Source: Raillietiella orientalis
Lineage: Eukaryota
Direction: 5' to 3'
NCBI GenBank assembly: GCA_036172245.1
Contig: JAYWIR010000065.1
Span: 434,001-498,000 of the forward strand
DNA: 64,000 nucleotides
This document shows, one piece after another, positions 1,624 through 63,149 of the stretch. Position 1 is the first letter of the stretch. The number at the start of each line of letters is the position of its first letter. The notes under the pieces were generated by a model. It did not search any database, was not told where the DNA came from, and saw only the letters and a list, made by a program, of their open reading frames with translations. A program made the position numbers and the translations under genes.

Positions 1624-2420
1624 TGTGAGAGCTCATTTGCATCAGTATGCTTAGCCCGCGTCGGAGACCGTGTGGTTACGGTGGTCTCCGAGCGTGGCAC
1701 CACCATGCGTCGCGGGTTGGAATACTCCGACTGAATCGACTCAGTGCGTCGTGAGTTCGACTTTCTCCCGCGAGATGACGCTGGCTGGCCTGCATTCATC
1801 CGGGTGCAGCACTGGTAGCGGTTGGAACCGGATGCCCCAGATGAGGGCCGGGACAAATGGGAGGCCACCTCCCCGGTTCTTCCAAGAATCAAGTAGTGGG
1901 AGATCCCCTCGGTTGTGAAGGAGCGGACCTTCCATTACGGGGGGGTGCTCAGCGTCGTACTGATGGAGTAGGTGTGTCTCCACCATCTCTCCAGAGAGTT
2001 CAGAGAAGCGAGTCGATCCCATAGGGGAAGCCGCGTCCTTCTGAATTTCGGAAGCGTCCCTTCTGGATTCTCTTCAGAGGAGTAAAAACAGGAGCGGATC
2101 CCTTGCGGGGGATCCCCTCCGAAGAAGAAAATCCAGGAGCGGATCCTTCCCGGGTTCCCTTCAGAGAAGAAAGAATGGAGCGGATTCCCCCGGGGGTCCT
2201 CCAGAGAGAATAAGGAAGGAGGATTCCCTTCTGTATTCCCCTTCGGAGACAACCAGGGTGTAGGTGACCTTCATTTCCGGGGATCCCCCCCAGGCGTGAG
2301 AGGAACGGACTCCGAGTCCTTCCTGGCTTCATAGGGAGGACCCCTCCCGGGGTACCCCCTATCTTGGAGAATTACCCACCCTCGGGTGGCGTGGAACCAT
2401 GCCGAAGAACTGCGAAGACA
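1624..2420. repeat. GC-rich, hairpin-rich dispersed repeat, copy 1, with an internal ~41-45 bp tandem unit
   Basis: Unit starts GGAGCGGATC/GGAGCGGATT/GGAGGATTC at 2091, 2136, 2177 and 2218. Positions 1748-2415 align in reverse complement to ~8690-9332 (e.g. CTTCCAAGAATC; GATGACGCTGGCTGGCC vs GATGACGCTAGTTGGCC). Confidence 0.8.
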
Positions 2421-3719
2421 GAAAGGAAAAAATTTCCATCAGCATGCTTACCTCCTGAAATACTTAGCCAGAAACAAGACGCACATCAACGCGTTCCAAT
2501 TCCAGAAACAAATGCACTTATGCGGAGGTGCCACGTTTAGAATGCGATTCCCTCGACAGCGAATGAGCAAGGTGTTGATCTGATACTTGGAAATCATCTG
2601 GGAGAGGAATATTCGCTCATTGCCAGACTTCCTGCTCGTGTGGAGATAGACACAGGCATAAAAACTTCATTGCAACGCATGGGCAGTAGGTTCTGCGTTA
2701 ACATCCAACGGAGTCCGCAGCGCTCATTCGATGAGAAAATCGTAAACAGAGATTGGCGTTTCTGTAGCATAAGCATCATCATAAATTCAGGATGGTGCTA
2801 AATTTCAAGATTAGTTTGATGAAGCTGTTTTAAGGTAAGGTTTTTCGAACAAGTTGTTTTTAAGGTCCCTTTAGATTCCCGAGTGGTTTCTCAACTGCTT
2901 CTTGAGCGCAGCAATGTCTCCCGAGTTTTTCGATGGAAAAACCAACGTGGGGCCTTACCTCTTCTATATGCACAAGGTCAGATCGACTGGTCCTTCGCTT
3001 TGATTCGGAAATCAGCCCACTTCCTTCCTTAATTCATTTAGCCATTTTCATTGCCCTTTCAAGGACCGAAGAACGACCTCACGAACTTTTTGGTGTCGCT
3101 CTCCCTTTCAGATTTCCCTAAAGCCGTGCACACACACCCATGTCTTACTTAAGCGAACCCGAACCCTCTTAAGAAGAGCGTTGGTTCATGATTGAAATAA
3201 AAAGCAAGCAACCAAACGTGAGGCCTTTAATCGAAGGTAAACAGAAATTTGTTTCTTTTAAGAAGAATCAGTGAAAGAGTAATTCTGTCACCAGAAAAAT
3301 GGTATGAATGAACCGATTTAGCCTGCGAGACGCCGCTGCATTTCCTTCACGGACTGAGAAACCCTCGGTTTCAAATACAAAAGATGTCCAACGCAGATCG
3401 TTCTTGACGTGCAGTCGATTTCCATTTCGCTTCTTTCGTCAGTAAAAAAAAAAAAAAAAAAAACTACATAAATAAAACCCTGTTTTTTGTTTTTCCTGTT
3501 TTTTTTCGTTCTTTGAGTGGATGTACGCGGGTGCAAGCCGAAGAATGGCACGGAACGCAGTCCTCCGGCCTTCGGGGAAATTGGAAAATACTTTACCCGA
3601 AACGCCTTCAAGCTTGAAATTTCGAGGGTCATCTTCCGCAATCGAATCGTGTTCCACGTAAAGTGTTGGGTTCTCGCAATACGTCTGGCAGTGAATCGGC
3701 AGCAACACTGAGCACCTAT

Positions 3720-5100: not shown

Positions 5101-7441
5101 CTGTGAAATGCTACTCAGCAAGAAGAGGTTTCAGGCATCGTTGTCTGGAACAGAGTGGCACATCGGATGCTGAGAAAGTCTCTGTACGTTGAGGATCGCT
5201 TCCTCGACAGCGTAGAAGCATCCGATGTACCTCTGCATTGGGGCTACTTTCCCTGATGAACATGGATCCATCTCGTTCATCTCGTGATGATTACTGTTTG
5301 CTTTTCTCAGTGTGCAAACGAATTTCGCTGGAGTGAGTTGATGGGAGCCAGTGCTGTAGTCAGCCACAGCCACCGCTATGCATCCCTATGCATCTTATAA
5401 TCCTCCATCAGTCACCAGTCGATCTCCCACTAGAGCTGTGCTAAGCACTGCCAGATATTCTGAAAAATTCTGGGAAGAGACGTTGTATCGCTTCCAGCAA
5501 CATATTGTGCCACTCCCAGAGTCGGGGCACCTACACCTACACGCCGAGGATCAAAAAAATGAAGCACGTCAGCAGTTCATGATGAGCTTTCAACCTTTTT
5601 TGCTTTTTCTTTCCTCTTTCCTCGAAATTTCACATCTTTCAGTCCCCCTTCGGATTTTTTCTTGAAGTTGGATTACTCCTCTGAGCTGAACGATTCTTCT
5701 GAAAAGTGTTTTTCAAACTTTTCCTTTTTACGCTGCAATGCTTTCCCCCCCCCCCCCCTTCTTAAATACGAACATGTGTCAATAATATGTACTTGATATA
5801 CACATACTCCTGAAAAGTTATCTCGATAAAAAGCATCTAACGTAAACCACCCTTACCGTGCAGTGCAAACTTTTCCTCCCTGAAATATCTTCCGGAATCA
5901 AGGCTTGCATCAGCATGAACCACAAGAAGGTATCCAGAGAGTCATGCAAAACATTTATCACGCGTTTACATGGAAAACGCCGTTGATGACCGTTCCAGCA
6001 AACTTTCTACAGCCAATAGAAGAAGTTGAATTCTTTGATTTCGTTACTTTACCACTGCATCTGCTCCTTTTTCTTCCTAGTAGGGGATTATATTCAAGGA
6101 ATTTCAAACACATGCTTGCAGACAAATGCAACAGAATTCATGAAATGTAGCCGGGTTCCGATGAAATTTTCGGGACTCAGTTATTGACTCAAAATGTTAA
6201 ATGCCCAATAAGTAATGTCTTCTATCTCGCCAAAATTTCAAAATACTATTTTGATCTTCCCAAAGAATTCCTCAATACAGCATAGGAATTTGAAACTGAT
6301 TTTTTTTACCTCTCTGGAAGATGCCTTACCAAATTTGCATGATGTATTTTTATTTTTGACTGATTTTTTTTCATGAATTCCACAATTTGTCAGTTTTAAT
6401 GAATGAAAGCTGGTGAGATCGTAAAGAATTAATAATCATTTGGTCCTTTTGTGTTCATGGAACACAGTGAAGCGCACCAACAAAAGTAAAGAACAAGTAC
6501 GAATACATGTACCATAATATCCCATATTAGCAGTTCGAAAAGCCTTCCCAGTTCCCGGAAACCTGTTCTGTTCATTAGGACTCATTCCTGATAGCTTTGG
6601 ATGGTCGAACCTTGGTCTGAAGGACTTGTTTCGCTTTCCATTGGGCTTTTCTGACTCCTGAAGGAGCACATCAGGTAAACTCGAATTTATTCTTCGTTTC
6701 TGAACAGTCTGAATTTCGTCTGCATCTCTTTTCTTTAAATAACATCCCTGTCCCTTCGAGGCAATCGTACTTCGGTAATCATGTCAACTGTTACCAAAGT
6801 GTTCTTCTTGTCATCCTTATTTTTGCTGTTATTTTCCTATTGTCGTTAGTGCTTCCCCTAATTGTCATTATCATTCATTCAATAATCATTATTCCTGCAT
6901 GTTACTCTTATATTGCTACTGTGCTTTATATGTTCAAATTTCTCTCCCTCCAAATTGGCTGCAAGGCCGCATACAATTGGGCTGTGCTGATTGAGTTCCT
7001 TTACAAAGCTCACTGATATTACAGTTTATGTTGCTCGAAATCTTCCTTTTGTCATCCTCAACAAATAAAGACATACTGAATAAGTTGCATTCGAATTCGC
7101 GGACTGCTTAACCACCGCACCCATTTTCTTCCATTTGAGCATTCGAAAACGAAGTTTCTGAAGCCCTTGCATCAGGATCAGTCAGCTAGTTTTCCGGTAT
7201 TCCATCAGAGCTTCTTCCTCAGCCGTCGTTGATGATGCATGTCCAAAGCAGGAGGAAAGTGTCCGTGAAGTGATTCCAATGAGTTTGAGATCATCAAACG
7301 AGCAAGTGAATTTGCAGCTGCGACCATGTTTTGGGAGAAGCATTGCTTTTATCGTAACCGATATTTAAGAAAGAGGTAGAAGAAAGCGGTTTGGAGCACA
7401 AAGAGGTCTTGCATACGTGGCCGTTCCGTTTCTCCAGTTAA

Positions 7442-8319
7442 CCCTCTATCTGAGGCGCGATTATTGCTAGTTGAAAACCTTTACCCTCTATAGGCCGAAT
7501 TTTTTGTTCCGGCTACGAAAAAAAATATGTAACGTGAAATTTTCAAATATCAAGCTTTGAATACGAATTAATGATCGTATGAATTCAGTAGTTTCAATGA
7601 TTTCATTATAACGAACGTGCTTTGTAACTTTGGGTTTGCAACGGCGTACAACGTTTACACTTGGGCGTGTATAAAATGCTGAAGCATGGAATTCCATAAA
7701 ATAGGTTTTGCCTGGCGTTCGACATTGATGTACGTTGGATTTCCCGCGCTTCATTTCTGGCACTCCTTTGCATCCGGGATTTCTGCAGCCTCCCCTCTTA
7801 TCCGAAAAGAGTGGCCGACGCGCCATTGCATCCTTTTTTACGTTTTTGACAGGAAGTGTTGCGCTTGTTCCCCTTTTCTCCTCCTCCTTTAACTATTTAT
7901 CCACAGCGGTTGATGCACCGAATCCCACCATTACAGCTCACTGTGAGTTTCAAGTCACAAAGCTGTATCATGTGAAAATAATAACAAGATGAGTGTTTAA
8001 ATATGCAAACGAATGAGAGATCGTCGATATACAAACCAAGAGCCATTACGTAGGCTTTTTCTTGTTCGTCAAAACACCGGCAGAACAAAGAATAAAAACA
8101 ACTGCGCAGGATGGTTCATACAACTTTCATGCACAGACACCTCGCAAAAGCATTTACCTCGGTATCTCGGGTTCGAGTTTGATATCCGTTACCAAGACTG
8201 TTGTTGGTTACCAAGGAGACGTTATACAACGAGCCACCTTGCGGTGAAAAATTAAATCAATCAATAGGGTATCGATACATTAGTGTGTGAATTCAAAGTC
8301 CCATCAGGCTATAAAGGGG
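7442..8319 (-). mobile_element. Internally deleted, decayed piggyBac DNA transposon
   Basis: TTAA|CCC at 7438-7444 and GGG|TTAA at 8317-8323, with imperfect terminal inverted repeats (an alternative left end lies at 7484). Minus-strand translation RPLFSDKRGGCRNPGCKGVPEMKRGKSNVHQCRTPGKTYFMEFH matches the piggyBac C-terminal Cys-rich domain pattern; CRCFDEQEKAYV lies upstream. Confidence 0.6.
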
Positions 8320-8627
8320 TTAATAGCCTAGACTTATCAACAAAAAATTTTTATCCTTCAAAACGATCAAATCCTTTGTTTTGCTCCAAGCAGACCGGTG
8401 TCAATGATCATGAGAGCAAGGGAAAATCATTCAAGTCCTTGCAGAAGCATTTATCAGCGGCCTTCGTGGTGCGAGTCCACAATGGAATTTGCATTCGAAG
8501 ATATCACATCATGTAAGGTGAATTCTTCATTACTCGGCTCTTCTTTCGAACGGGGAAGTTCCCGGTTGATGCCTTGTTGAATCCAGATGAAAGGAAATCC
8601 GCTTGCGACTCGGAAACACAAGACAGC

Positions 8628-9332
8628 TTTTTTTCTTTTTCGGGTTTTTTGGGGGGTTTGCTAAGTACCCAAGAACCGTTCTCCTAGCGGCTCACGAAGC
8701 TCTTTAGCACTACTCCATGCCACCCGATGATGCGTGTAGTAGCCCTTCAATTTGGGAGGTATCCCCGAGAGGGGACCACCGTATGAATCCAGGAAGGACT
8801 CTGGAGGAAGAAGTCCGTACCTCTTACGCTTAGTAGGGGAACCTCTAATGGAACTCTCGCCCTGGTTGACTCTGAAGGAAATTCCGAAGGGAACCCCTTC
8901 CTTATACTCTCCAGAGGGAACTCCCGGAGAGAGCCACTCCTTAGTTCTTTTTCGAAGGAACCCGGAAAGGAACTCTCTTGGAATTTCCTTTCCGGAGGCA
9001 CCCGCAAGGGAACCGCTCTTTGTTTCCTTCTCTGAAGAGAACCCCAAAGGGAACAGCGCGCTTCTTCCACTCTGTAGAAGCAAATCCCTCCGAGTGGGGA
9101 ATCAACCGGCTCCATGGTACGCGATGGAGGATCCTCAGAGGGGAGAACGGTTTCGTTTTTGCAACCTAAGGGGGAATCCCCAAGGGAACCGACTCCTAGA
9201 TTCTTGGAAGGACCCCGGAAAGTCAACTTCTTCCGATCCCGGCCAGTCAACCATTCCGGCTTTCACCAGTGCCGCACCCGAAACCTATGGGCCAACTAGC
9301 GTCATCCTGCGGTGGGGGAAGAGTCCACGACT
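8628..9332. repeat. Hairpin-rich dispersed repeat, copy 2 (inverted relative to copy 1), with an A-rich end on the minus strand
   Basis: Homologous to 1748-2415 in reverse complement. The plus strand has serial hairpins CCCC-GAGA-GGGG, TTCC-GAAG-GGAA, CCC-GCAA-GGG and CCC-CAAA-GGG. The minus strand ends CCCCCCAAAAAACCCGAAAAAGAAAAAAAA at ~8628-8657. Confidence 0.8.
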
Positions 9333-10050
9333 TCAGGCTTCCCCACTCTAAAGTCTACTGTAGGTCGATCTTCTGGCTTTGTCAGCGCCATGACTACATC
9401 AGCCGCTACTCCTAACAATGGTATTTCGTCGAACAAGTCGTGGTTTGCCATGTCAACTCGCGCTGAGTGGTATCCGTTGCCCCCATTCACGATAGCCTTT
9501 CGAATAAGAGGCACCCGTAGTTCAGTGACTTTGTGCATCTTGTCCTCGTAATTGCCAACTGATTTCAGATACGTAAGGAGAGGACTGGGCACACAAAATT
9601 CTGTATCGATAATGGCCTTACGTATCGCTTTTGGAGTTTGGAGTTTAGAGCGCCACTTTCGCTTGTCTGACTTCCATATCTAAAAGCATTGTCCACAGTT
9701 CCAAAATATTTAACCTCCCCGACTTCGATCTTACGATCCACCTCAAGCGGGATCCAATGGGCGGACCTCCTCAGCTGTGTCTCCAGCTTTGCTAAGGTTA
9801 GCCTTGAATCCCTTGCGCGGGTTAACTTCTGTTAACCCGCGCAACTACGAGCTGAAGATTGCCTCATCTAAGATAGAGGCGTTCCTCTGCGGTGTCGGAT
9901 TGGCATTCAAAGCTAAGAACCGTGGAAGAATGACAAAAGGTGTCTTCGGGGCAAACCGATTAGGTTGGCGACGAACTTTTGTTTCCATTTGCGCTGAAGC
10001 CGAATTCCCCGCTCTCCTTTGGTCTCTGCGTCCTTTTCTACATCGACTTT
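9333..10050 (-). pseudogene. Endogenous viral element: partiti-like virus capsid protein fragment (stops and frameshifts)
   Basis: The minus strand gives, in order: basic N-terminus RKGRRDQRR; PTPQRNASILDEAIFSS*LRGLTEVNPRKGF; EVDRKIEVGEVKYF; LWTMLLD..QAKVAL; KAIRKAIIDTEFCVPSPLLTYLKSVGNYEDKMHKVTELRVP..GGNGYHSARVDMANHDLFDEIPLLGVAADVVMAL. From recall this series matches arthropod-associated partiti-like capsids; not searched. Confidence 0.7.
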
Positions 10051-10439
10051 GCTTCTTGAGGTTTGTGGTTATTTATTTCTTGTCAGACCGCCACCACTTT
10101 ACTCACAGAACACAGCGATCCTTTATTTCATCCGGCCACGTCGGGGAGTTTATTGTAGAAAAATATTTACAAAAAAAAAACAGTCATATAAAATATAAAA
10201 TGTTTTTCCTCGTAGTGGCTTCACATCACCACTGTGAAGGAAAATGCCTCGGAGGAGCTGCTTCTCCTGAGCAGCTTAGCGATCAGATCCGCACAGGAGA
10301 AGTAGGGAAGAGATGAACAAAAACAAAAAAAAAGCGCAATAGCTCGATTTCAGCGTATGTTGGAGGGGGAAGGGAAGGGAGCACAGATTATGTCCTGGAT
10401 GCGTCCTCGGCCTCCTCTGGAGGATGTTAGCAACTTCCT

Positions 10440-11750
10440 CCTTTTTTTTTTTTTTTTCCTTCCTCCTTTTGTTGGCCTAGATGTGGCCATCTTGTCTCCT
10501 TCCTCACGAAGGAGCAGACGATTGCGATGACCTTACCGTTCGACTGACGTCTTTCGGCGTAGCTTTCAGCCGCCACAATCCCACGGAGGCAGCACGGAGC
10601 TGCAAGGGAAGCTGCAGGCGACATCGGCGACATACGCGGCACGCGCGTAAAGAGGCACCGCAAAACCTCTCTGCCGTTGCCCATAGGAAGTGGGAGGGCT
10701 GCAGCGAACGTTCTTTGACACTCAAAAGAGCAACACAGGTGCGGGAATGTTTTTCTCCACACCTGGCACAGTCTGGCACTGCACTCCCTCTTGTCTCTGG
10801 TAAGCTCGTGCCTTCCATGGGATCTCCCAGTGCAACAACCTCAATGCCGAGTTCCTCCCACTTCAGGGGAAGAGTGCAATTGTCCACAAATACTGGGAGT
10901 ATATCTGCCTCCTCAGGAGGAATGTCCAGGAGTTCCACCCGGCGGCGAATTCCTTTGGAGGGGCGTCAAGCCTTTACATGTATTCGAACCCGTGACGGTT
11001 GGTACCACGCGTGGAGACCGCAGCCACACGGCCTCCCACGCGGGCACATATCGGAGGAACTGTCTCGGGGGACACATGTATGCGTCCAAATAAATCTACC
11101 TTTGTGTGCTTCTTTCTGATACCAGTTCGCTTCACATCAGTTTTCTTTCCACGAAAGAGTCTTGTTTGATTTCAGATCTTCATGTTATTCCTGAAAAGCG
11201 ATTCCTTGATTCCGTTCCCTTCCACGCAAATCCCCTTTTCATGTTGAAAAATCTGCTCGACTAGGAAACCGTGATCCGCCCTTTCATCCCAATTCAGTTT
11301 AAATGCGAGACGAAACCCGTTGAGGACCAATGATGCTTGCTGCGGTGCAAATCTTTCTTTGGTTTCTGCCAATCTGAACTGCGAGCATGATTTCGAAGCT
11401 TTGATCTCCTCAATCAACACGAACAACTTTCTCGATGCTCTGCAAGACTCTGCAAGACAGGGCTCTCTTTTTCATCTTTGAGGATCATCTCTAGACCTAT
11501 GAGAAGTTAAAAGCACCTTTTACTAGTGAATTTTGATGAAGCCGTATTGGAGCGTGGTGTGCGAGATGCAACTCCACACAGACTCTTCGCTTTCCCGCAA
11601 AGGAAACCCCGGAGTCTAATTTCAGTCCATAAATGCCCTTGCAAACGATCGTTTCTTCGGGAAACGTAATTCTCCTCCCAAGTGTAATAATTCCGTACAC
11701 TTCTCTAGGATAAGTTTCACGACGCGCGTTTTTGATCTGCATTGAGATTC
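10440..11750 (-). mobile_element. Decayed non-LTR retrotransposon pieces (ORF2 linker and zf-RVT-like end) with a poly(A) run
   Basis: LPETRGSAVPDCARCGEKH (10504-10938); GFRLAFKLNWDERADHGF (11172-11426, like the EN-RT linker); A16 run on the minus strand at 10442-10457. Confidence 0.4.
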
Positions 11751-17702: not shown

Positions 17703-20700
17703 TCAAACATTGGTTGACTCCAGCAGTTTAGAGTTAACAACTGCCTCATGTGCAGTCTCTTCAATTCTCCACTGAAAAATACTTCCATCTCGTCCTCCAG
17801 CTGATATAAGATGCTGGTCATCATAAAGGAAACAGACTTGGGTGACATGGCTACTATGTCCAGTGTATACATGGCTCATTGTCTAAAAGCATTCTGATAC
17901 ATGCAACTTAATTTTGGCAATCATACTTACAGTTGGCTGACTGGCTGGATAAGAAAATAGTTTAACTGTACCATCTTCCTCGCCTGTAGCCAAAAGTTTT
18001 ACTTTGTGCCCCCGACAACAAGCATTAATTTCTGTGCCCTGTACACCTTCAGGCCAAATGCCCAGCACTGTACTACTGATAGTGCATGTTTCTGTGGTCC
18101 ATTCCACATCACGCACCTTGTATGTCTGAGTTACTTGTTGGCAATCACTGACATGCCCTAACACAATGGGTGAAAATGCCCTTTCAACTTATCATCCATC
18201 TTACAGAATTGGAGTTGATAACTGGCAGATGTGGTGCGCAAATACATTCCATCTACAGACCAGTCCAATCCATTAATAGGAGAATTATGGCCCTATAATG
18301 ATGTGACTAACAAGTTCATCATCACATCAGTCTCACTTGCACTGACCTGGCAAACACCCAACCTTGATACAAGACTTCCATCTGCTTGCATCTGATATAT
18401 AAACAGCTGACCACTTTGAGTTCCAAGTGCCAAGCAGGTACTGTCGGGAGAGAAACGACAAGTCTGAATAGGACTGGTGCCATCCATGTGACGAAAAACG
18501 ACTTGCATAGTACACAAATTGAGCAATGTCCACTGTCCAGTAACTCCACCAACAGCAATTAACACACCATTAGGGGAGAAGCATACGGATTGAATACTAT
18601 CCTGGAAACCCTTTGAATCAACTGTAGACCCTCCATACATACTTCCCATTCCTGGATCCATTTTGGCTCATGGGTAACTAAATCCCACATTTTTAACAAG
18701 CAATCATGAGCCCCACATACTATGTAGGGTTGAGTAGGGTGACAGTCAAGTGCAGGAAATTCAGCTATGTGACCACTGATCACCAATTTCATCTCTAAGG
18801 CATCAGATGCCAACAGGATGCAATTGTGTGTGGTGCCCACAATCAGCTGAGAATTTTTCCCCATTACAAGTGCTCGTACTCGACCATAAAGAGGAGGTAT
18901 CTGCCAAAAAAAATTATTTAAGCACAAATACTATCAGTTGTTGCTACCGTAGTTTCCAGTCCAGTCTTATGTCCTACACAGTTCCAGGCTACAATGCGAC
19001 CATCCTTGCCTCCTCCAGACAAAAGAGTTCCTTCTGCTCTTCTAAGAAGTGCAAATACACTGCCATCATGAGCATGACGAATGATATTGGCAACACTGTT
19101 ACCACCAAGGGACCAGACCATTATGTTGCCATTTGAATCTCCTGAGAGAATATCTCCATTCTCAGCAAAAGCTAAACAAGTAAGGTAGCGTGGCTTCTCC
19201 CGAGGATCCATGACTCCGAGGCGACGATGCAAACCTCCATTACCATCAATAGTCCAAAAATGGATGTGACCTTTGCCACACAAAACTAAGCTATTCTTCT
19301 CAAATGGGTGCCATTCAATAGCCAGCACTATGTCAGGTGCAGCCTAGATAAGGCATTTCATACCATCCAACTTTATCTAGCAACTTACTTTCACTTCAAA
19401 AAGACGTTTGTTTTGCTGCCAATGCCAGATTGTTAACTGATGATCCATGCTCTCATCTACAACAGCCAGAAGAATTCCACCATCCTAAAGCAAACAAAAA
19501 ATGCCTCGATTTATGTTGACCATGCTTACAGCATAGGAAAAAGCATGACAAGCAACTCCACGAAATGGACCCAGAACATGCAAAGTGTGTAAAGTAGCTG
19601 AATCCCAGATTCTGATGTTGGCCTGCAATGAGATGAGTAAAGAATGATCAAATTACTCTCACCGTTAGATGTTTGCTGTTTCCTGCACCTTGAGCAGAGG
19701 CCACTAAAACCCGATTGGGATGCACTGCCATACTGATAGTATTACAGACACATATGCTCTACATGTTTCAGCATCTTTACATACCATTTGACATCTGAAG
19801 TATGACCAAAGTAATGCCTCTGCACATTATCAACAGCATGATGAAGAACAACTACCAATCCCACAAAATACAACAGTTCCCCAGTGGGCAACCAGAATAA
19901 ATTTTGTCGGCAATCTCGCCCTCGATAACCGTAACTGACACTCCATTAAGTTCTTGCTGTATAGTGCACCAAACAAAGGATACACCCACTCAAGGTGAAG
20001 TTCATAATGAGGAGGAGGTATGACAGAAGATAAAGAATATGTATCTTTTATCGCACTGGGCACATATATAGTCAATGATTGACCACGCAGCTGACAATGG
20101 ATACTACCTTCTTTGGTCTTTAAACTGATATCTCGAAGCCTAACAAAGTCAACAATTCGAAGTCAATACTTTCTACTTACCCTCCTTTCAAAGCAATAGT
20201 ACGCTGAGCGGTGGGAGTACCATGTCCACTCCTTGGGCTCCTCGTAAAACTTCTGCCAATACTTTGATTGCTAAAGAGCTAATCAATGATGCTGCTTGCC
20301 AATAGTCTACTAAGGTTACCCATGACTTGCCAAGCTGCTGTTTGAACCATATACATCTGGAGATCTGCCTGCTCCCCCAAAATCAGTTGCAGAAACCCAA
20401 CGACGACTTGATTTTAAATCTACTCCACTTGGAGTACATTTGGGAGATCCATTTTTGCAGTTATTTTCAAATCTATTTCCGCTATCTTTCCAAGAATGTC
20501 TAAACACCAATGTATAAGACAACTTACAATACTCTTACTTAAATGGAGACTTTCGCTGTGAAACTGCTGAATGTGCTTCTAGAAACATCTCTTCATTTTC
20601 TGGAAGCTGATAGACCGCCCTTTTGCCTGCAAAAGTATGGGATCACTAGATGATGATTAAGCAAGAAAACTCATTCACCACTTTTAAGAGATTCCAGAAG

Positions 20701-50369: not shown

Positions 50370-52912
50370 ATGGAAGTTACGAGTAGCAAACGTGCTTCAT
50401 GTGGGTTGGATCTCACGTGCCCATCGGATTTAACGTCTGATCTTAGAACTGCCAGGGAACAAGGGTAAGGTGGACTAGAAACATTTTCATCACTTACAGT
50501 TGCATGTTGTAACCGCATAATGTTTGTTTCTGTATTTTAAACTATTATGTGGCTAACCAGATGTAGCCTTTATTATTGGATTGCTGTGTGTGAGAGCATT
50601 TTAGGGTTCTAGAAACTATCTTTTAACTATGGCACATATATTTTAATTAACCACAAATCATCGTGTTGTGCTTATGATAAGAAAAATAATTTATTTGTGT
50701 TTCTGATGATTGAAGGTATGATTTTATAGTAGTACCGATAGTACATCCACGTTTTAAACGAAATCTCATTAGTAAAAGTGAGGTAAAAGATTTGGGCCCC
50801 CTAACCCGTTCCGATTTGGTCTTATCTAGTCAAGGTAAAGTAGTAATTTTGTCATATTATCTACTGAATATGCTATTAACTATTTTCACAATAGAGTGGA
50901 GCACTTTAATTGTGGGAAAATTATCCCCAAACATTGACTTGGATTCACCTGTACCATCAATACGCCGTAATTCAGAATGTTTATTTGAGCAAGAAACAAG
51001 CTATGCAGCCCATTTAAGTTTGCCTGCTGTGATAGTAACATTAACAAGTAGCAACTGTGTGAATTTGGCCCGCTGTGTCTATAATTCAATGCTTCATGGA
51101 TCCAGTTACCAAGCTGGACTGCTGCGGATGGTATGGAAATAAGAATGCTCAATGAAACTATGTGCTTAATATAGGTGTGGGTTCAAGTACCCATGGAATC
51201 AAAAGCAAAGTTAGCAAAACAGTTCTATCAAGAAGAATCAAATAACCTTCCTAAAGAAAATGAGGACACATGGATTTGGTGAGTTCTTGAGTATGTTGAT
51301 GTTGCTGATGGGACCTAGGTGGAACAAATTCCATAGTCTCTGTCACTTTGACCGGCATATCTTTCTGGTAATCCAAATACCAGAAGAATTGCCTGAAAAA
51401 GAACAAACTGAAAGATGGCTAGGGGAACCTATACGTTGTGCCTTCTTATCAATTAGTACATTCATTACTAATCGTAAAGGTTTCCCTGTTTTGTCACGTG
51501 CACATCAGGATTTTCTAATTCGTTTATTTCGGCAGGATGTTCAAGTGGTTCTTTGTGGTGCCCCAAGGCATGAGTCTGTACGCTCATATCAGCAGTATTT
51601 GGATCATCTTTGGCAAGTGAGTTTTAGTGCTACAGATTACTTTTATTTTCTGCTAGAACCGTCCTCCAGATAATGCTTTACAACAATTTGCCCAAGGCTA
51701 CGAGGACTATCTGCAGGTACCTCTACAACCTCTCATTGATGATCTTGAATCACAGACCTATGAGATTTTTGAGAAAGATACAACAAAATATTATTTATAT
51801 CAGAAAGCTCTTTTGCAAGCTATGGAAGATTTGTGTCCTGATGGACAGAATCAGCAACTGTAAGTAAAGAATTTAAAATACTTTTATAGGAAATCTTTGA
51901 AGAGTTGTGATGGTATTGGGAGCAGGTCGTGGTCCAATAGTCCAGTGTGCTTTAGAAGCTGCATCAGAGTCTGGTAAACATATAAGGCTGTATGCTGTAG
52001 AAAAGAATCCCAATGCTATGGTGACGTAAGTACAAGTAGCTTCATGTCAACTTTATGCTTCTGTAGCTTGCAAGCTCAAAAACAAGAGTTGTGGAATGAT
52101 GCAGTCATTTTAGTGACTTATGATATGAGAAATTGGGATCCTCCTGAGAAGGCAGATATTATTGTATCAGAATTATTGGGTTCTTTCGGTGACAATGAAT
52201 TATCTCCTGAATGCCTTGATGGAGCTCAGAATTTTCTCAAAGGTTGTGAAATGCATGTTCGTAATATAAAATCAAGGATTTTCACAGAAGGAGGAATAAT
52301 TATTCCTTGTAGCTACACATCCTATCTAGCACCTTTGCATTCACCACGCTTGCATGCAGAAGTTGCATTGTCTAGAGATCCTTTTAGACCTCCATACACA
52401 TGTTTTGAAATGCCCTATGTTGTACATCTTCAGAATCGGCTGGAACTGGCACAGGCGCAACCATTATTTACATTTTATCATCCCAACTATGGTTAGAACT
52501 CATCAGTTTGTTTTTCTTATTTATGTTTCTCAGACCCTAATAAGAATAATAGTCGATATGGCTGTGTAACTTTCCGTACCAGCCAGCAAGCAATGTTACA
52601 TGGCTTAGCAGGTTACTTTGAAGCTAACCTTTATAAAGACATTATGTTGAGTACAGTACCTGAGACACACACACCTGATATGTTCAGCTGGTTTCCATTT
52701 TTGCTTCCCATTAAGGTAAGAATTTTGTATTTAATGGTTGATATTGTTTTTTATCTAAGGATCCAATTCCTATTGACAAGGGAAGTGAAATCACAGTCCA
52801 TCTGTGGAGAAGAGCTAGCAAACGGAGTATCTGGTATGAATGGTGTGTAACTGAACCACATTATGTACCTGTGCACAATGCATGTGGGCGTTCATTTTCA
52901 ATTGGGTTGTGA
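50370..52912 (+). CDS. PRMT5: Protein arginine N-methyltransferase 5; exons 50370-50464, 50716-50834, 50895-51130, 51175-51278, 51319-51616, 51657-51859, 51903-52025, 52067-52242, 52288-52491, 52534-52715, 52760-52912
   Basis: The spliced frame is continuous: [61 protein letters not shown] (SAM motif I), [28 protein letters not shown] (double-E loop), [14 protein letters not shown]. All introns are GT-AG. Confidence 0.96.
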
Positions 52913-55348: not shown

Positions 55349-56250
55349 TCATATGGAATGGGTAGCAAAGATGCAGTTTGAATGCCTACAGATGCTAATG
55401 CATCTAAAGCACCGTCCGAATATATAAAGCCCCTTCATGGGTGGAGGTATCCATATAAGGGACAAGGCGTTTTGTTTGATAGGTACTGCAGTTTCGCTGC
55501 TGAACTCCCACACCATCAGTGGGAAGCTGCCATCCTTCTCCACTAGGAAGGCCAGAGCCGCCGCTAGGGAGAGGCTCAGTTACCCCGTCCTTTTTCACTA
55601 GATAGGGTACGAGCTCCTAGATGATGAGTTTTTCAGGAAGAGTCTCCGATAGCTGAGGAGATTCGAGGTGGTCACTGTAAATTACGTCCGGGTCTTTACT
55701 GTATCCTGCCACCAGGCAAGCTACTGCATCTTTGAATCGGATCCTCAACTGTTTCCAGACGCCATAGGGCCTCTTTTAGGTGGCCATCAATCCGCCTCCT
55801 TACAGAGCAGAGAGGGAGGAGGAAGGGCAGCATTGGTTTCAAAACGGAGGCGAGCTATGCATTCCGAATCCTCGCCCGTTTCTTGCAAGAGAAATTCGCC
55901 ATGCTGGAACGAGCCTAGGCCAACTCGATTCATTGGGAGCAGGCGGACCACAGATCCTTGCTCATCCCTGCCGGGAACTCCCCCGATCAGACGCCCAGGT
56001 GCTTGAAGTAGCTGCTCCTGGGGATCCCCAAGAGAATTCAGACCGGTCGTCCAGCCCACGCCTCGCCAACAGGAACCACTGAAGACTTCTGTCTGTCTAT
56101 GTGCATGCCCGCTTCCTGGCGGATCAGCTCGAAGTGGATCTGCCGGGGAGCAGGTAGCGGACGTGAGTAACAGCAGCAGCAGCAGATCGTCGGTGTGGGC
56201 CGACATGGCCGGCTTAGCGGGGCACGAGCGCGGCAGGTTTTTCACCCAGG
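55349..56250 (-). mobile_element. Older non-LTR ORF2 3' half (RT catalytic motif to zf-RVT)
   Basis: MSAHTDDLLLLL (YADD-like), GLNSLG (KYLG-like), and a zf-RVT-like tail at 55349-55543. Confidence 0.5.
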
Positions 56251-57511
56251 TAAGCCGGGGCTTTTATTATTAAAAAATTTTTACAAATAAAAAATTCCAT
56301 AATAAAGTCTTGTCTTGAAGTTAATTTTCAGGAAGAACACTTCTGTCAAGTTCTCACAGGCTTGAGGCACCTGTCCCTACCGACCCGCAGGCCGGTAAGG
56401 TCCTCTCCACTGGCGAAGGGGCGGGAAAACCAGGAAAAACACAAAAAGAAAAACGCCTGGGGGAACAATGTTTATAGGGAGGGGAGGGGAGGGAAGGGAT
56501 CACGGTACGCCGCGAGTGGTCCTCTGCATCCGCGTTTGGATGCGCACAAGTGCAGGTCGTAAGTTCGTAGCCAGGGCCCTCGAGAAACTTTCTCCATGGA
56601 GATGCCCGCCCAGTGAGTGGCATTCCGGCCGTTGTGGCTTCGCACTGATGCAGACCCTTTGTCCAGGATTCCGCGTATGCGGCAGAGAACTGCTGCACAC
56701 GCGGCTGCTGGCAGGGCGTCCCGCATCAGGAGGCGACATCAGCAAAATGTCCTTTGGGTCGCCAGCTGGAATGTTCAGGATCGACGGCAGTCGATTCCAC
56801 ATGGGGAGGAGGGCGACACAGTCGAGTAGCAGGTGCGGGAAGGTTTCTCTTTCCCCGCAGCCTGCACAACGGACATCCACACTCCCCAGTGTCCAGTGGG
56901 AGAGGCGTGCTCTGCAAGGGAGTCCCCAATGGAGCACTAGCAGCGCCGTCTCTTTCCGCTCTAGGGAGAGGGTGCCGTTGTCCCAAGACGCTGGAGGCCA
57001 CTTCACCTCATTTGGAGACATATCGATCAGCTCGCCCCAGCGCACAATTCCATTTGGCGAGACACTCGGGGTTGTAGCGTCCGCTAGTTCCCGGGACGTC
57101 CACGCCTTCATTGGTTTTTTCCTACCTCCAATGAGGCAGGACACTTCCCACGATTCCTCCTCTTGGCTGTTCCTGGCTTCTCTGAGGGAGGGCAGCACGA
57201 GGGCAAGGGGGGTGAATGAAGCCCACTAGAGTTTCCGTGGGTTGGAAACGATCTCCCGCAGGGGCTGTCGAGCGTTCCTGCCTCGACGGAGGCAGGAAAA
57301 GTCCACATCTCTGGAGCCGTTGATTTTTGCCCACGCAGAAACAGACTCCTGGAGCCAAGTTGTCCAGTTCGCAGGGAGGTAGGAGATTCTATATGCGTAT
57401 TCTCTCTCACCAGGGCAACCAAGTCACGTAGCTGAAAACCACCATGGTTGAGGCTGTGGTCGTTAGTCACAAGGATTGAAGTCAACCCATTGGAGCCGGT
57501 CGCTCTACTGG

Positions 57512-58702: not shown

Positions 58703-58945
58703 AAAAACATTCATGAGATGGAGTCGGTGTGTAATTCGTATTGTAGTCTTAGGATTAGGAAAAGAATTAATGACATAATGAAATAGTTATGGAAAATGTA
58801 TGACAGTGGAAAAAGAGATAGGAGAAGAATGATGGCTAGTTTAATAACAAAGATTAAGATGAGCATTGTAATCAAGGAGCATTGAATAGAAAATGGGAAG
58901 CATGCGTTAGTTTTGGGGTCGGAGCCACATTCGAACGGAGATTCC
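58703..58945 (-). pseudogene. nad3: NUMT: mitochondrial nad3 (5'-truncated)
   Basis: SPFECGSDPKTNACFPFSIQ..LIF..YELHTDSISW matches nad3 SPFECGFDP..PFSxxFF..YHEW..W. Confidence 0.88.
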
Positions 58946-59919
58946 AAGTCCCTGCTTGTGGGAATCCCCAGGCGCATCCAGTATGGCTGCCCCCCCAACG
59001 ACGCTCCAATTGGCACGACCGTGGACCTTGTCCTGTTGACGCGCAGGTTTGCTCCCCGGCGTATCGGCCCACAGAATTCCTCGAGCTGCTTCACCAGGAT
59101 GGACCTGGGCAATAGGTTAAGCAGATCGTCAGCGCAGGCCACCACGCCTGGCGTGCACGGACAGGACGTCGCCAGGTTGACCACTGTTGTCCTGTACCCA
59201 CTCAGCACCAACTCGAAGTGGGTGGTGAACAAGATGGGCCTCCGGCTGTCACCTTGCCTAATTCCTCGGAGCATCAGCACGCCGTAAACGTGGCGACTGA
59301 GAAACCCAATGTGTATTATCGCGTTGCGCCATAGCGACCGCAAGTACTCCAAAAAGCAGAAAGGAAGTCCGAGGCGCTCCAGAAGTTCCAGAAGGTGCTT
59401 CTGGTTCACGCAGTCGAATGCTTTCTACAAGTTGACCGCGATCGCGAGAACACTTGGTTCCTCCGCATTTCTGCCAGTACTGTTTCCGGAGCCCTTCCGT
59501 GAGATCTTATCCCTACGGATCTCCGCCACAACCCGCTGTTGCAACCATATCCAAGTTCGCACGAGGAACAGGTTTAACTCCATACTTCTGCCTGAGACAG
59601 CATAGGTCTGCTCCGGACGTAGGAAGGAGTCGGCCAATTGTCCCAGAAGTGCTTCCCACAGCCTGGAGAGCAGATTGAAGTTCCCATTTAACCTAGTAAT
59701 CGGACGCCAATTGCTCACATTGCGCAAGTCTCCTCCCTTTTGCAGGAGACGTACTCTGGCTGACCGAAAGGAAGCTGGCACCTCACCTCTCTCTCGGATC
59801 AGTACGTCCAGCTTCAGTACCAAGGGAGCAAGCTCTGCTGCGAAGGTCCGGCAGCACTTCGCGGGTAGGCCATCATCCCATTTTCTGAGTGCTCCCATGG
59901 CACCGCTGACTTCCGTCAT
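58946..59919 (-). pseudogene. Reverse transcriptase domain of the L1/Tx1 element
   Basis: ORFs 59425-59919 and 58711-59409 are in one frame, split by a stop before KAFD; QGD and ADD motifs present. Confidence 0.9.
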
Positions 59920-61777: not shown

Positions 61778-62209
61778 TCAATTAGCCTCTGCTGCGTTTG
61801 CAGGGCATACCCGCCTAACGTGCCCAAGTTGCTTGCAGCCACGGCACTCAATCTTCGGACATCTCCTCTCGAGGTGTCCCGCTTCTCTGCACTCGCCGCA
61901 AACTTTCGAGTTCCCCACAAACCAGAGTTCGACGTTTCTTCCTCTCATCTCCACTTTACGGGGAAATTTTTCCCTCCCAGCGGAAACGCGCACCGCACCA
62001 AGTCCACTGAACACACATTTGAAACTCTTCAAAAGTTTTCCTTTCAGCCACAGGGAGTGCATGGTGGTGTGATCCTCCAGCGCCGCAGTCTCCTCGTCGT
62101 CGGACGCGCCCGACAAGTGAAGAGCGAAAGACTGATCCTCCCTTGGTTTCTCGATGCTGAATGACGTTCGAAAAAGTCGCCGGGTGAACTCTGTTCTTTT
62201 GCAGACCAA
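61778..62209 (-). pseudogene. Gag-like ORF1 with two CCHC zinc knuckles
   Basis: CGECREAGHLERRC and CRGCKQLGHVRRVC, preceded by FPRKVEMRGRNVELWFVG. Confidence 0.85.
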
Positions 62210-63149
62210 TTCCCAGCCTTCGTTTTTGCAAGCAGTATGAGGGACTCTAAGTCTCCCTCGCGTACCCCGACCCTCGTTGGTCTTCGGTCGAGCTGGAGAA
62301 TCGCTCTCCTTTAGGTGGCTTACCTTATATCTGATTGCTTATTTATAGCCTAAGGCAATATATGTCCGCATTTCCCCATCCTCCGGAGGTCCCGCGTTGG
62401 CCACCGCTGCCGCGGCTACATCGCTTCCCAAGAGTGGAATGGCGTGGAGAAGACTTTCCCGTTCTTCTTATCGAAACCTTCCTCAGAAAGGCATCAGGAA
62501 GTGTTGCCAAGCCAACTTCGTTGAGTACACCTCCCTCCAACCTTCCCTTGGAGGATGTGATGCAAGACCAGAGCAAGAGGAATAGCCTGGCCGCTACGCT
62601 CCTTGCAGCAACGCTGTCCAACCTAAGGGCAAGCCACGACAGTAGCCTGCTGGCGGTATGGGAGCTCTTCTACACGCTTGCTGGAGAAACAAGACCCTTA
62701 AGCAGCTGGGAGAGGAGCGAGCTGGCAAACGTTGCCACTTCCAATTGTGCGAAAGGACTCCTTCAGAGGAACGAGGTGTTCCGTGTGTCCCCCGAAGAAC
62801 TTGTAGTCCCTCCCTCGTGCGTGTACACTTCGGAGTTCCCCCTACCATCGAAACAGGACGTGCTTCTGCTGGTCCAATGCTGTTTCCATTGCAGCCAGCG
62901 CACGAACCAAGGGAGGAGGTAGTTGCATCCTCGTACAGTGGGAGGCGCGGAGCAGGGGAATCGCTCCCGCACCTGCTCTTCGACGGTTTGTTCCCTCCAA
63001 GGACCGTGGTGAAGGCTGTCTTCAGCGCTCCTGCATCCGGAGGAGACCTCAATGGACGTGATACGCCGCTTCACGCGCGGAAGCCTCCTAGGTGCGGTCA
63101 TCGCAATGCTCTGTTACATCCGCGTCATAGTCACGTCCCGCAACCAGTT

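Follow-up and report, generated by a model that had tools for sequence, protein, structure and literature searches.

A partiti-like virus capsid fragment joined to a 5'-truncated, A-tailed retroposon in arthropod DNA: a candidate template-switch retrocopy

How double-stranded RNA (dsRNA) viruses such as the partitiviruses become host chromosomal DNA is an open question. It is raised by one locus of Raillietiella orientalis (contig JAYWIR010000065.1, positions 434,001 to 498,000), where a fragment of a partiti-like virus capsid gene is followed, directly and on the same strand, by a host retroposon copy that lacks its 5' end and finishes in an A-rich tail. This stretch of 64,000 nucleotides (64 kb) is called the window throughout the paper, and all results for the locus rest on it. 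An earlier, sequence-only reading had suggested that reverse transcription began on the RNA of the repeat and switched to viral RNA. This was found to be the best-supported reading of the anatomy of the locus; it is not proven, given a flanking repeat that matches at only 10 of 12 positions and a competing explanation by deletion. We lean, with slightly more confidence than doubt, toward the view that one insertion event, driven by the reverse transcriptase of a host retroelement without long terminal repeats (non-LTR), a long interspersed nuclear element (LINE), produced the DNA between about 10104 and 8628 (minus strand) as a single chimeric retrocopy.

What is the viral part, and where does it end? 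Using the open reading frame (ORF) 9302-9679 (minus strand) as query against 1.84 billion representatives, 97 proteins were found at E<=1e-3 and 44 at E<=1e-10. Two relatives carry names, "putative capsid protein [Ips partiti-like virus 1]" and "Capsid [Hubei tetragnatha maxillosa virus 8]". Full-length capsid relatives comprise ~450-465 amino acids and are encoded on contigs of ~1.5-1.7 kb. When 98 capsid proteins of 300-600 amino acids were compared with the window by tblastn, the capsid matches were confined to 10060-9305 for all 98 queries. Of the 99 ends of high-scoring segment pairs (HSPs), 71 fell at 9335 or 9332 (...FRVGKP/E), 5 reached 9320-9305, 23 lay earlier and none passed 9305. 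A profile built from 57 full-length capsids recognized a single domain from 10054 to 9332 on the minus strand, corresponding to profile positions 15-257 of 459, the N-terminal 56% (E 5e-45). No second capsid domain was found elsewhere in the six frames of the 64 kb at E<=100. The C-terminal half (profile positions 258-459), whose presence on the far side of the repeat would have spoken for a later insertion, was detected neither left of 8628 nor anywhere else in the window by tblastn or profile. A search for Pfam families gave none for the capsid ORFs nor for ten relatives. With the 125-amino-acid ORF as query, no relative was found in the first viral-contig scan and none among the longer proteins. 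The fragment contains one in-frame stop (9847-9845), and between 9764 and 9643 all three frames are needed to follow the profile collinearly, which equals at least three frameshifts. Judged by its sequence, the fragment at 9332..10054 (minus strand) is an endogenous viral element (EVE) derived from a partiti-like virus capsid gene, a pseudogene that no longer works as a gene.

At the nucleotide level, 9433-9384 shares 78% identity over 50 nt with nt 768-817 of a 1652-nt IMG/VR capsid segment (L002), which consists of a 92-nt leader, an ORF of 461 amino acids and a 174-nt trailer, with no poly(A) in the contig. From this match, the viral part would end near nt 868 of such a segment. The leaders of two capsid contigs measure 92 and 133 nt, and neither contig has a poly(A) end. 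Upstream of the detectable capsid, a stretch of 50 nt (10055..10104, minus strand) without a profile match in any frame extends to the candidate duplication described below; it possibly represents the capsid N-terminus and a short leader.

Two side observations concern the capsid sequence itself. Within the fragment, 9813-9844 form an inverted repeat whose 14-nt arms match perfectly around a 4-nt loop; by chance, an estimated ~2e-4 such repeats would occur in 1.6 kb. Residues that still fit the capsid profile are encoded by one arm, and the other covers the loss of similarity beside the in-frame stop; the repeat looks like a snap-back (quasi-palindrome) templated mutation. Among the database proteins, one of 1976 amino acids (P0001) carries a partiti-like capsid stretch of ~120 amino acids 16 times in tandem, followed by a normal capsid C-terminus; this is due either to faulty assembly or to amplification of a capsid segment in a different organism. 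This internal tandem amplification and an unrelated repetitive protein (P0060) have no bearing on the locus.

What kind of element is the partner of the capsid? Its full-length reference is copy 1, a retroposon of 778 nt at 1654..2431 (plus strand), whose ends are fixed by a target-site duplication with 17 matches in 19 positions (1635-1653 and 2432-2450). A 14-mer with at most one mismatch was reached in only 1 of 2000 shuffles. Copy 1 is built from a 72-nt head, a linker of ~40 nt, an array of fold-back hairpin units of ~45 nt each and a short A-rich end. This A-rich end, shorter than that of the fused copy and placed before the duplication, answers the concern that other copies might show none. 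Duplication and A-rich end together indicate that the family moves by target-primed reverse transcription. In the 64 kb, two copies of the body and one extra head were found. The term hairpin repeat, used in the sequence-only reading, suits copy 1, whose RNA folds far better than its shuffles (z -4.55, 0 of 20 as good); it does not suit copy 2, the copy fused to the capsid (z -1.14, 6 of 20), as is expected of an old copy.

Copy 1 shares the target-site duplication and the A-rich 3' end with short interspersed nuclear elements (SINEs), while ARAGORN and Rfam did not show its head to descend from a Pol III-transcribed small RNA with an internal promoter. ARAGORN detected no tRNA, and no Rfam family matched the heads at 1654-1725 and 11045-10980 at E<=1. 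For this reason, the element is called SINE-like. The head folds as one long hairpin, and its copy at 11 kb contains the motif GGTTCGAAT, which we take to resemble a B box. A 20-letter pattern common to both copies gave no match in viral contigs; a metagenome match to it (L001) was discarded as due to chance, with only 25 nt matching the window.

The fused copy 2 occupies 8660..9316 (minus strand) and covers element positions ~111-778 according to nhmmer and blastn. In the nhmmer alignment, positions 111-774 of copy 1 correspond to 9316->8682 (E 9e-54), and the best blastn block shows 71.6% identity over 356 columns. About 24 nt not common with copy 1 separate the end of this alignment from the A-rich tail. 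The tail itself was read directly as 32 nt at 8659->8628 on the minus strand (8628..8659), broken by C and G. The earlier statement that one strand runs from the capsid through the repeat to an interrupted A-rich end was thus confirmed.

The joint was determined from the HSP ends and the nhmmer alignment. The last accepted capsid codon ends at 9332, and the repeat homology starts at 9316, leaving a gap of 15 nt, or at 9312 by manual reading, leaving 19 nt. The junction zone 9313..9331 (minus strand) of at most 19 nt can therefore be assigned to neither virus nor retroposon. The nhmmer envelope of the repeat reaches 9343 and, together with 5 of the 99 capsid HSPs, overlaps this zone, so that a short overlap (microhomology) at the joint is possible. 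The sequence-only reading had let the capsid similarity stop exactly where the repeat homology begins; the abutment was confirmed, the exactness holds only to ~20 nt. Both parts lie on the minus strand, directly joined and with at most 19 nt between them. They are reciprocally truncated at the joint: copy 2 lacks its first ~110 nt, and the viral part lacks its 3' part (profile positions 258-459). Copy 1 does extend past the joint where copy 2 is cut off, as had been noticed, by 110 nt and not by ~120 nt. Since all of the hairpin array is located 3' of the switch point, the hairpins were not the cause of a switch there.

Could the retroposon simply have arrived later? An ordinary 5'-truncated copy might have inserted into, or at the end of, a capsid EVE that already existed. 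Truncation at the 5' end is the commonest outcome of target-primed reverse transcription, and A-rich or T-rich debris draws new insertions, both of which count in favor of such an event. However, the capsid is not resumed after the tail (profile at E<=100; tblastn with no match left of 9305), and no duplication surrounds the retroposon part alone, as the best score at the joint region was matched by 96.7% of 300 shuffles. The absence of a duplication around the repeat only, for which the sequence-only reading had asked, was thereby established for this locus. An extra deletion or an exact landing at the end of the EVE would be required in addition, and we regard a later insertion as very improbable.

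Where does the chimera begin? Its 5' side is bounded by a LINE 3' end at 10117..10958 (minus strand), which lies outside the chimera, is itself 5'-truncated and comprises the C-terminus of ORF2, the 3' untranslated region (UTR) and a short A-rich end. A second LINE remnant was found at 56240..57225 (minus strand) with the C-terminal zinc-binding region of ORF2 and the 3' UTR. Comparing 10958->10126 with 57057->56240, 532 of 736 ungapped columns were identical, with a score of 228 versus a shuffle mean of 46.9 (sd 6.9, 100 shuffles). The peptides of the two copies share 36% identity over 88 amino acids (E 3e-10). In the remnant at 56 kb, Pfam zf-RVT was detected at 22.3 bits (E 2e-4), below the cut-off of 27.5, and in the protein atlas the first match reached 0.97, with 25 of 30 matches belonging to zf-RVT clusters. 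This remnant is a candidate relative of the source of the reverse transcriptase. The possibility that the paralogue at 56 kb represents an "empty site" was discarded: homology does not reach beyond the LINE 3' end (10126/56240), and the sequence to the right of the tail has no counterpart there (score 24, null mean 25.3).

As the LINE copy ends at 10126, the 5' end of the chimera must lie between 10125 and 10054, and an admissible interval of 91 nt was used in the test for a duplication. Directly after the A-rich tail, the sequence at 8616..8627 (minus strand) reads GCTGTCTTGTGT, and a partner with 10 of 12 identical positions, GCTGTGTTCTGT, was found at 10105..10116 on the same strand. A repeat of this quality was reached in 1.1% of 2000 shuffles of the admissible interval. 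The 10/12 repeat is suggestive of a target-site duplication of the whole chimera, a candidate and not a proof. A duplication bracketing the chimera, for which the sequence-only reading had proposed a search, is therefore present as a candidate of weak significance; no exact direct repeat of at least 8 nt flanks the chimera except A-runs.

A different history would produce the same joint by loss of DNA. Capsid EVE and retroposon might have inserted independently, and a deletion might then have removed the 3' half of the EVE, the intervening DNA and ~110 nt of the retroposon 5' end. The neighborhood is dense in retroelement fragments, and the EVE is old and damaged (the stop and at least three frameshifts), which gave time for deletions. 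In line with this, 59 of 1366 real 91-nt windows (4.3%) matched the score of the candidate duplication, which is not significant by this control, and the Armadillidium EVEs are described, in the passages on integration of PMC4231630, as being without obvious target-site duplications. Nevertheless, three events and a 50% coincidence of orientation would be needed. The deletion predicts no bracketing direct repeat and leaves it to chance that a 10/12 repeat stands at the tail and in the narrow 5' interval. It also leaves unexplained why the 3' end and tail of the retroposon are intact while its 5' end is missing. We consider this history unlikely, with some residual weight.

Upstream of the bounding LINE, a second copy of the ~72-nt retroposon head was detected at 10980..11045 (minus strand), followed by the LINE 3' end and not by a hairpin body. 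The head at 11045-10980 matches 1654-1725 with 77.8% identity over 72 nt (E 1.5e-9; local score 64 versus a shuffle mean of 21.3), and the bodies behind the two heads are unrelated. A head with two different 3' partners, hairpin body and LINE 3' end, indicates modular joining in this genome; ordinary SINE subfamily structure would explain it equally well. At 10117-11045 (minus strand) a second two-part unit thus becomes visible, the head being followed within ~20 nt by a 5'-truncated LINE 3' end. Its arrangement is that of a chimeric retrocopy of small RNA and LINE, or of a SINE that is just forming. The search for a duplication around this unit yielded nothing convincing, only a 12-mer with one mismatch in an implausible place. 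The idea that this head once formed the 5' end of copy 2 and was separated from it when the virus inserted was ruled out by the 830-nt LINE 3' end of its own that follows the head. A composite insertion from 11045 to 8628 was likewise rejected, as 14% of shuffles equalled its best duplication (11/14), which is situated 225 nt upstream of the head.

The sequence-only reading had gone on to suggest that the structured element serves as a vehicle for the capture of viral sequence. This part is not supported here: both of the other related copies in the window are free of viral sequence. Copy 1 has its own duplication and no foreign 5' sequence, and the further head copy is joined to the LINE 3' end.

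How could the locus have formed in one step? The same orientation, the reciprocal truncation, the tail at the flank and the lack of a second viral half form the pattern expected of a switch in mid-template, and the template switch, the enzyme and the single event are what we infer from it. The enzyme would nick the chromosome and prime on the A-rich 3' end of the SINE-like retroposon RNA. It would copy this RNA through the whole hairpin array to about position 111, switch to the capsid-segment RNA of a partiti-like dsRNA virus, in its messenger-sense (plus-strand) form and near nt ~870, and continue toward the viral 5' end. Sealing of the cDNA into chromosomal DNA, perhaps accompanied by a target duplication of 12 bp, would be followed by neutral decay of the insert. 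In partitiviruses, the plus strand is the strand released from the particles, and the sense orientation of the capsid part fits a plus-strand template. Without poly(A) on the two viral contigs, an internal start by switching would account for the presence of no more than the 5' 56% of the gene. The two 5'-truncated LINE copies with a zf-RVT C-terminus in the window were counted in favor of a LINE enzyme.

Chimeric DNA might also have been formed away from the chromosome. Viral cDNA made by the reverse transcriptase of an LTR retrotransposon or by the partitivirus polymerase would have recombined in the cytoplasm with retroposon RNA or cDNA and entered the chromosome by end-joining. Partitivirus polymerases are reported to make DNA from RNA, and a role in endogenisation is put forward there as speculation (statements in PMC8557412 and PMC12027680). 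For mosquitoes, formation of viral DNA via reverse transcription and recombination with retrotransposons is outlined in 10.1101/438911 and PMC6797480, and the weak duplication at our locus would suit this route. What it does not predict is that the retroposon's own A-rich tail abuts the flank, which is the arrangement predicted by target priming. Moreover, no LTR-element sequence was found beside the capsid by Pfam (90 of 139 ORFs of at least 110 amino acids), the scan yielding only a weak zf-RVT and a weak CCHC knuckle, both more than 45 kb away. This route is held to be highly improbable, and readings that we did not think of are left with a very small share.

Several findings weigh against a single chimeric retrocopy made by target priming. 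We are dealing with a single locus. Copy 2 is only ~72% identical to copy 1, and the 3' 60 nt differ, so that copy 2 may not have been an active family member. The 3' ends of the retroposon and of the LINE in the window showed no similarity. The candidate duplication, already matched by real windows as described above, was reached in 9.7% of 300 shuffles when a wider interval of 430 nt was allowed. On the viral side, the host LINE fragment leaves room for no more than ~30 nt of leader, compared to 92 and 133 nt in the viral contigs; most of the viral 5' leader is probably absent, the copy having stopped short or lost sequence later. Finally, the neighborhood is a cluster of retroelement debris with the LINE 3' end only 4-16 nt upstream, and a juxtaposition by successive insertions and deletions within such a cluster is plausible.

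The wider window places the locus in host DNA. Exons of a WD40 (beta-propeller) protein of the EML type were identified by Pfam at 18296-19343 (minus strand) and those of PRMT5 at 50714-52847 (plus strand). Six proteins were returned for the PRMT5 exon, the closest being those of spiders (52% identity), followed by isopod and decapod proteins (45-49%). Taken at the level of these exons, the window is animal chromosomal DNA, and the host is an arthropod without a close relative among the six returned PRMT5 proteins. With EML and PRMT5 exons on the same contig, the capsid fragment is embedded in host chromosomal DNA. Further observations were made along the window. A U4 snRNA-like sequence with an intact central U4 motif lies at 7405-7560 (plus strand), ~1 kb from the tail of the chimera; it scored 22.9 bits against a gathering score of 46 (E 0.1) and is a diverged U4 gene or a retropseudogene. 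At 58714-59424 (minus strand) an ORF matching NADH dehydrogenase chain 3 (Oxidored_q4, 29.6 bits, E 8e-7) was found in nuclear context, which may be a mitochondrial DNA insert. An ORF with a weak CCHC zinc knuckle (19.9 bits, below cut-off) at 61781-62338 (minus strand) and a 41-nt inverted pair (56818-56858 and 62947-62987, 6 kb apart, 76% complementary) may represent further mobile-element debris toward the right end of the window.

What would the locus mean? A viral fragment joined to a beheaded, A-tailed retroposon would be direct physical evidence for a route by template switching of a host enzyme and, if this is true, would add an exogenous viral RNA to the RNAs known from LINE chimeric retrocopies. 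Its weight suffers from there being just one old, decayed locus with a weak flanking duplication. A far bolder view is that the LINE/SINE-like system of this host habitually jumps templates, that SINE-tailed viral copies are a regular germline route for dsRNA viruses without poly(A), and that the locus is the first example; we regard this as improbable. If such habitual jumping were true, retroposon-tagged viral inserts could feed small-RNA defence. In open-access full text, we came upon no earlier case of a SINE-type retroposon fused to a fragment of a partiti-like virus, which does not establish its absence from the literature.

Chimeras formed by template switching of LINE enzymes are already known, as described in parts of PMC2104539, PMC4476161 and 10.1101/2025.02.02.635956. 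In the main text of the last, a survey of LINE-1 chimeras from 2025, the words "viral" and "virus" do not occur. Five features of LINE chimeric retrogenes are given in PMC2104539: (i) a full-length 5' part, (ii) a 5'-truncated 3' part, (iii) scattered truncations, (iv) a direct join in the same orientation and (v) flanking direct repeats; a chimera with a 5'-truncated SINE as 3' part is described there from a fungus. Features (ii) and (iv) are present at our locus. For feature (v), the 10/12 repeat at 8627->8616 and 10116->10105 was found as a candidate. For feature (i), capsid similarity can be followed from profile position 15 of 459 onward, and the space for a leader is limited to at most ~30 nt. 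The locus resembles MINE and WEIRD-MgSINE of Magnaporthe and U6-L1 of mammals in its 5'-truncated retroelement 3' part with a tail of its own and an unrelated RNA as 5' part in the same orientation. It differs from them in that the 5' partner is the transcript of an exogenous dsRNA virus and not a cellular RNA, and in that only a 10/12 duplication is present and the 5' part may be incomplete at its own 5' end.

Recombination between viral and retroelement RNA has a precedent in the lymphocytic choriomeningitis virus-intracisternal A-type particle (LCMV-IAP) chimeras of mouse cells (Geuking 2009, as cited in PMC4231630), where a host reverse transcriptase switches between retroelement RNA and non-retroviral RNA and the chimeric DNA is integrable. 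A further likeness is seen in the Aedes viral DNA and EVEs beside LTR elements, which are treated as virus-retrotransposon recombinants in sections of PMC6797480 and 10.1101/438911. In contrast to both, the partner at our locus is a non-LTR, SINE-like element with an A-rich tail. Such a partner implies target-primed reverse transcription on the chromosome and not cytoplasmic synthesis of the LTR type. In mammals, the endogenous bornavirus-like N elements (EBLNs) resemble processed pseudogenes: they derive from polyadenylated viral mRNAs and use the poly(A) of the virus. As with these LINE-1-mediated inserts (Horie 2010, as cited in PMC4231630), non-LTR machinery would have made a germline insert of viral RNA here; unlike them, the tail is donated by the host retroposon and the viral 3' half is absent. 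In the crustacean whose EVEs are surveyed in PMC4231630, signatures of retrotransposition were not found according to the account given there. By its summary description, the nodavirus-like eBxnv-1 of Bursaphelenchus, an EVE "captured by a retrotransposon" (PMC5177903), is similar as an RNA-virus fragment in a retroelement. Virus group and gene are shared with the partitivirus capsid-like and RNA-dependent RNA polymerase (RdRp)-like genes in plant, insect and other genomes, with insects named as frequent recipients (PMC12027680 and PMC3136472, in the portions concerned). Their way from RNA to DNA is called unknown or ascribed to the viral polymerase in the corresponding passages of PMC8557412 and PMC12027680. 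From these other endogenised partitivirus genes, the locus described here is set apart by its direct joint to a host retroposon.

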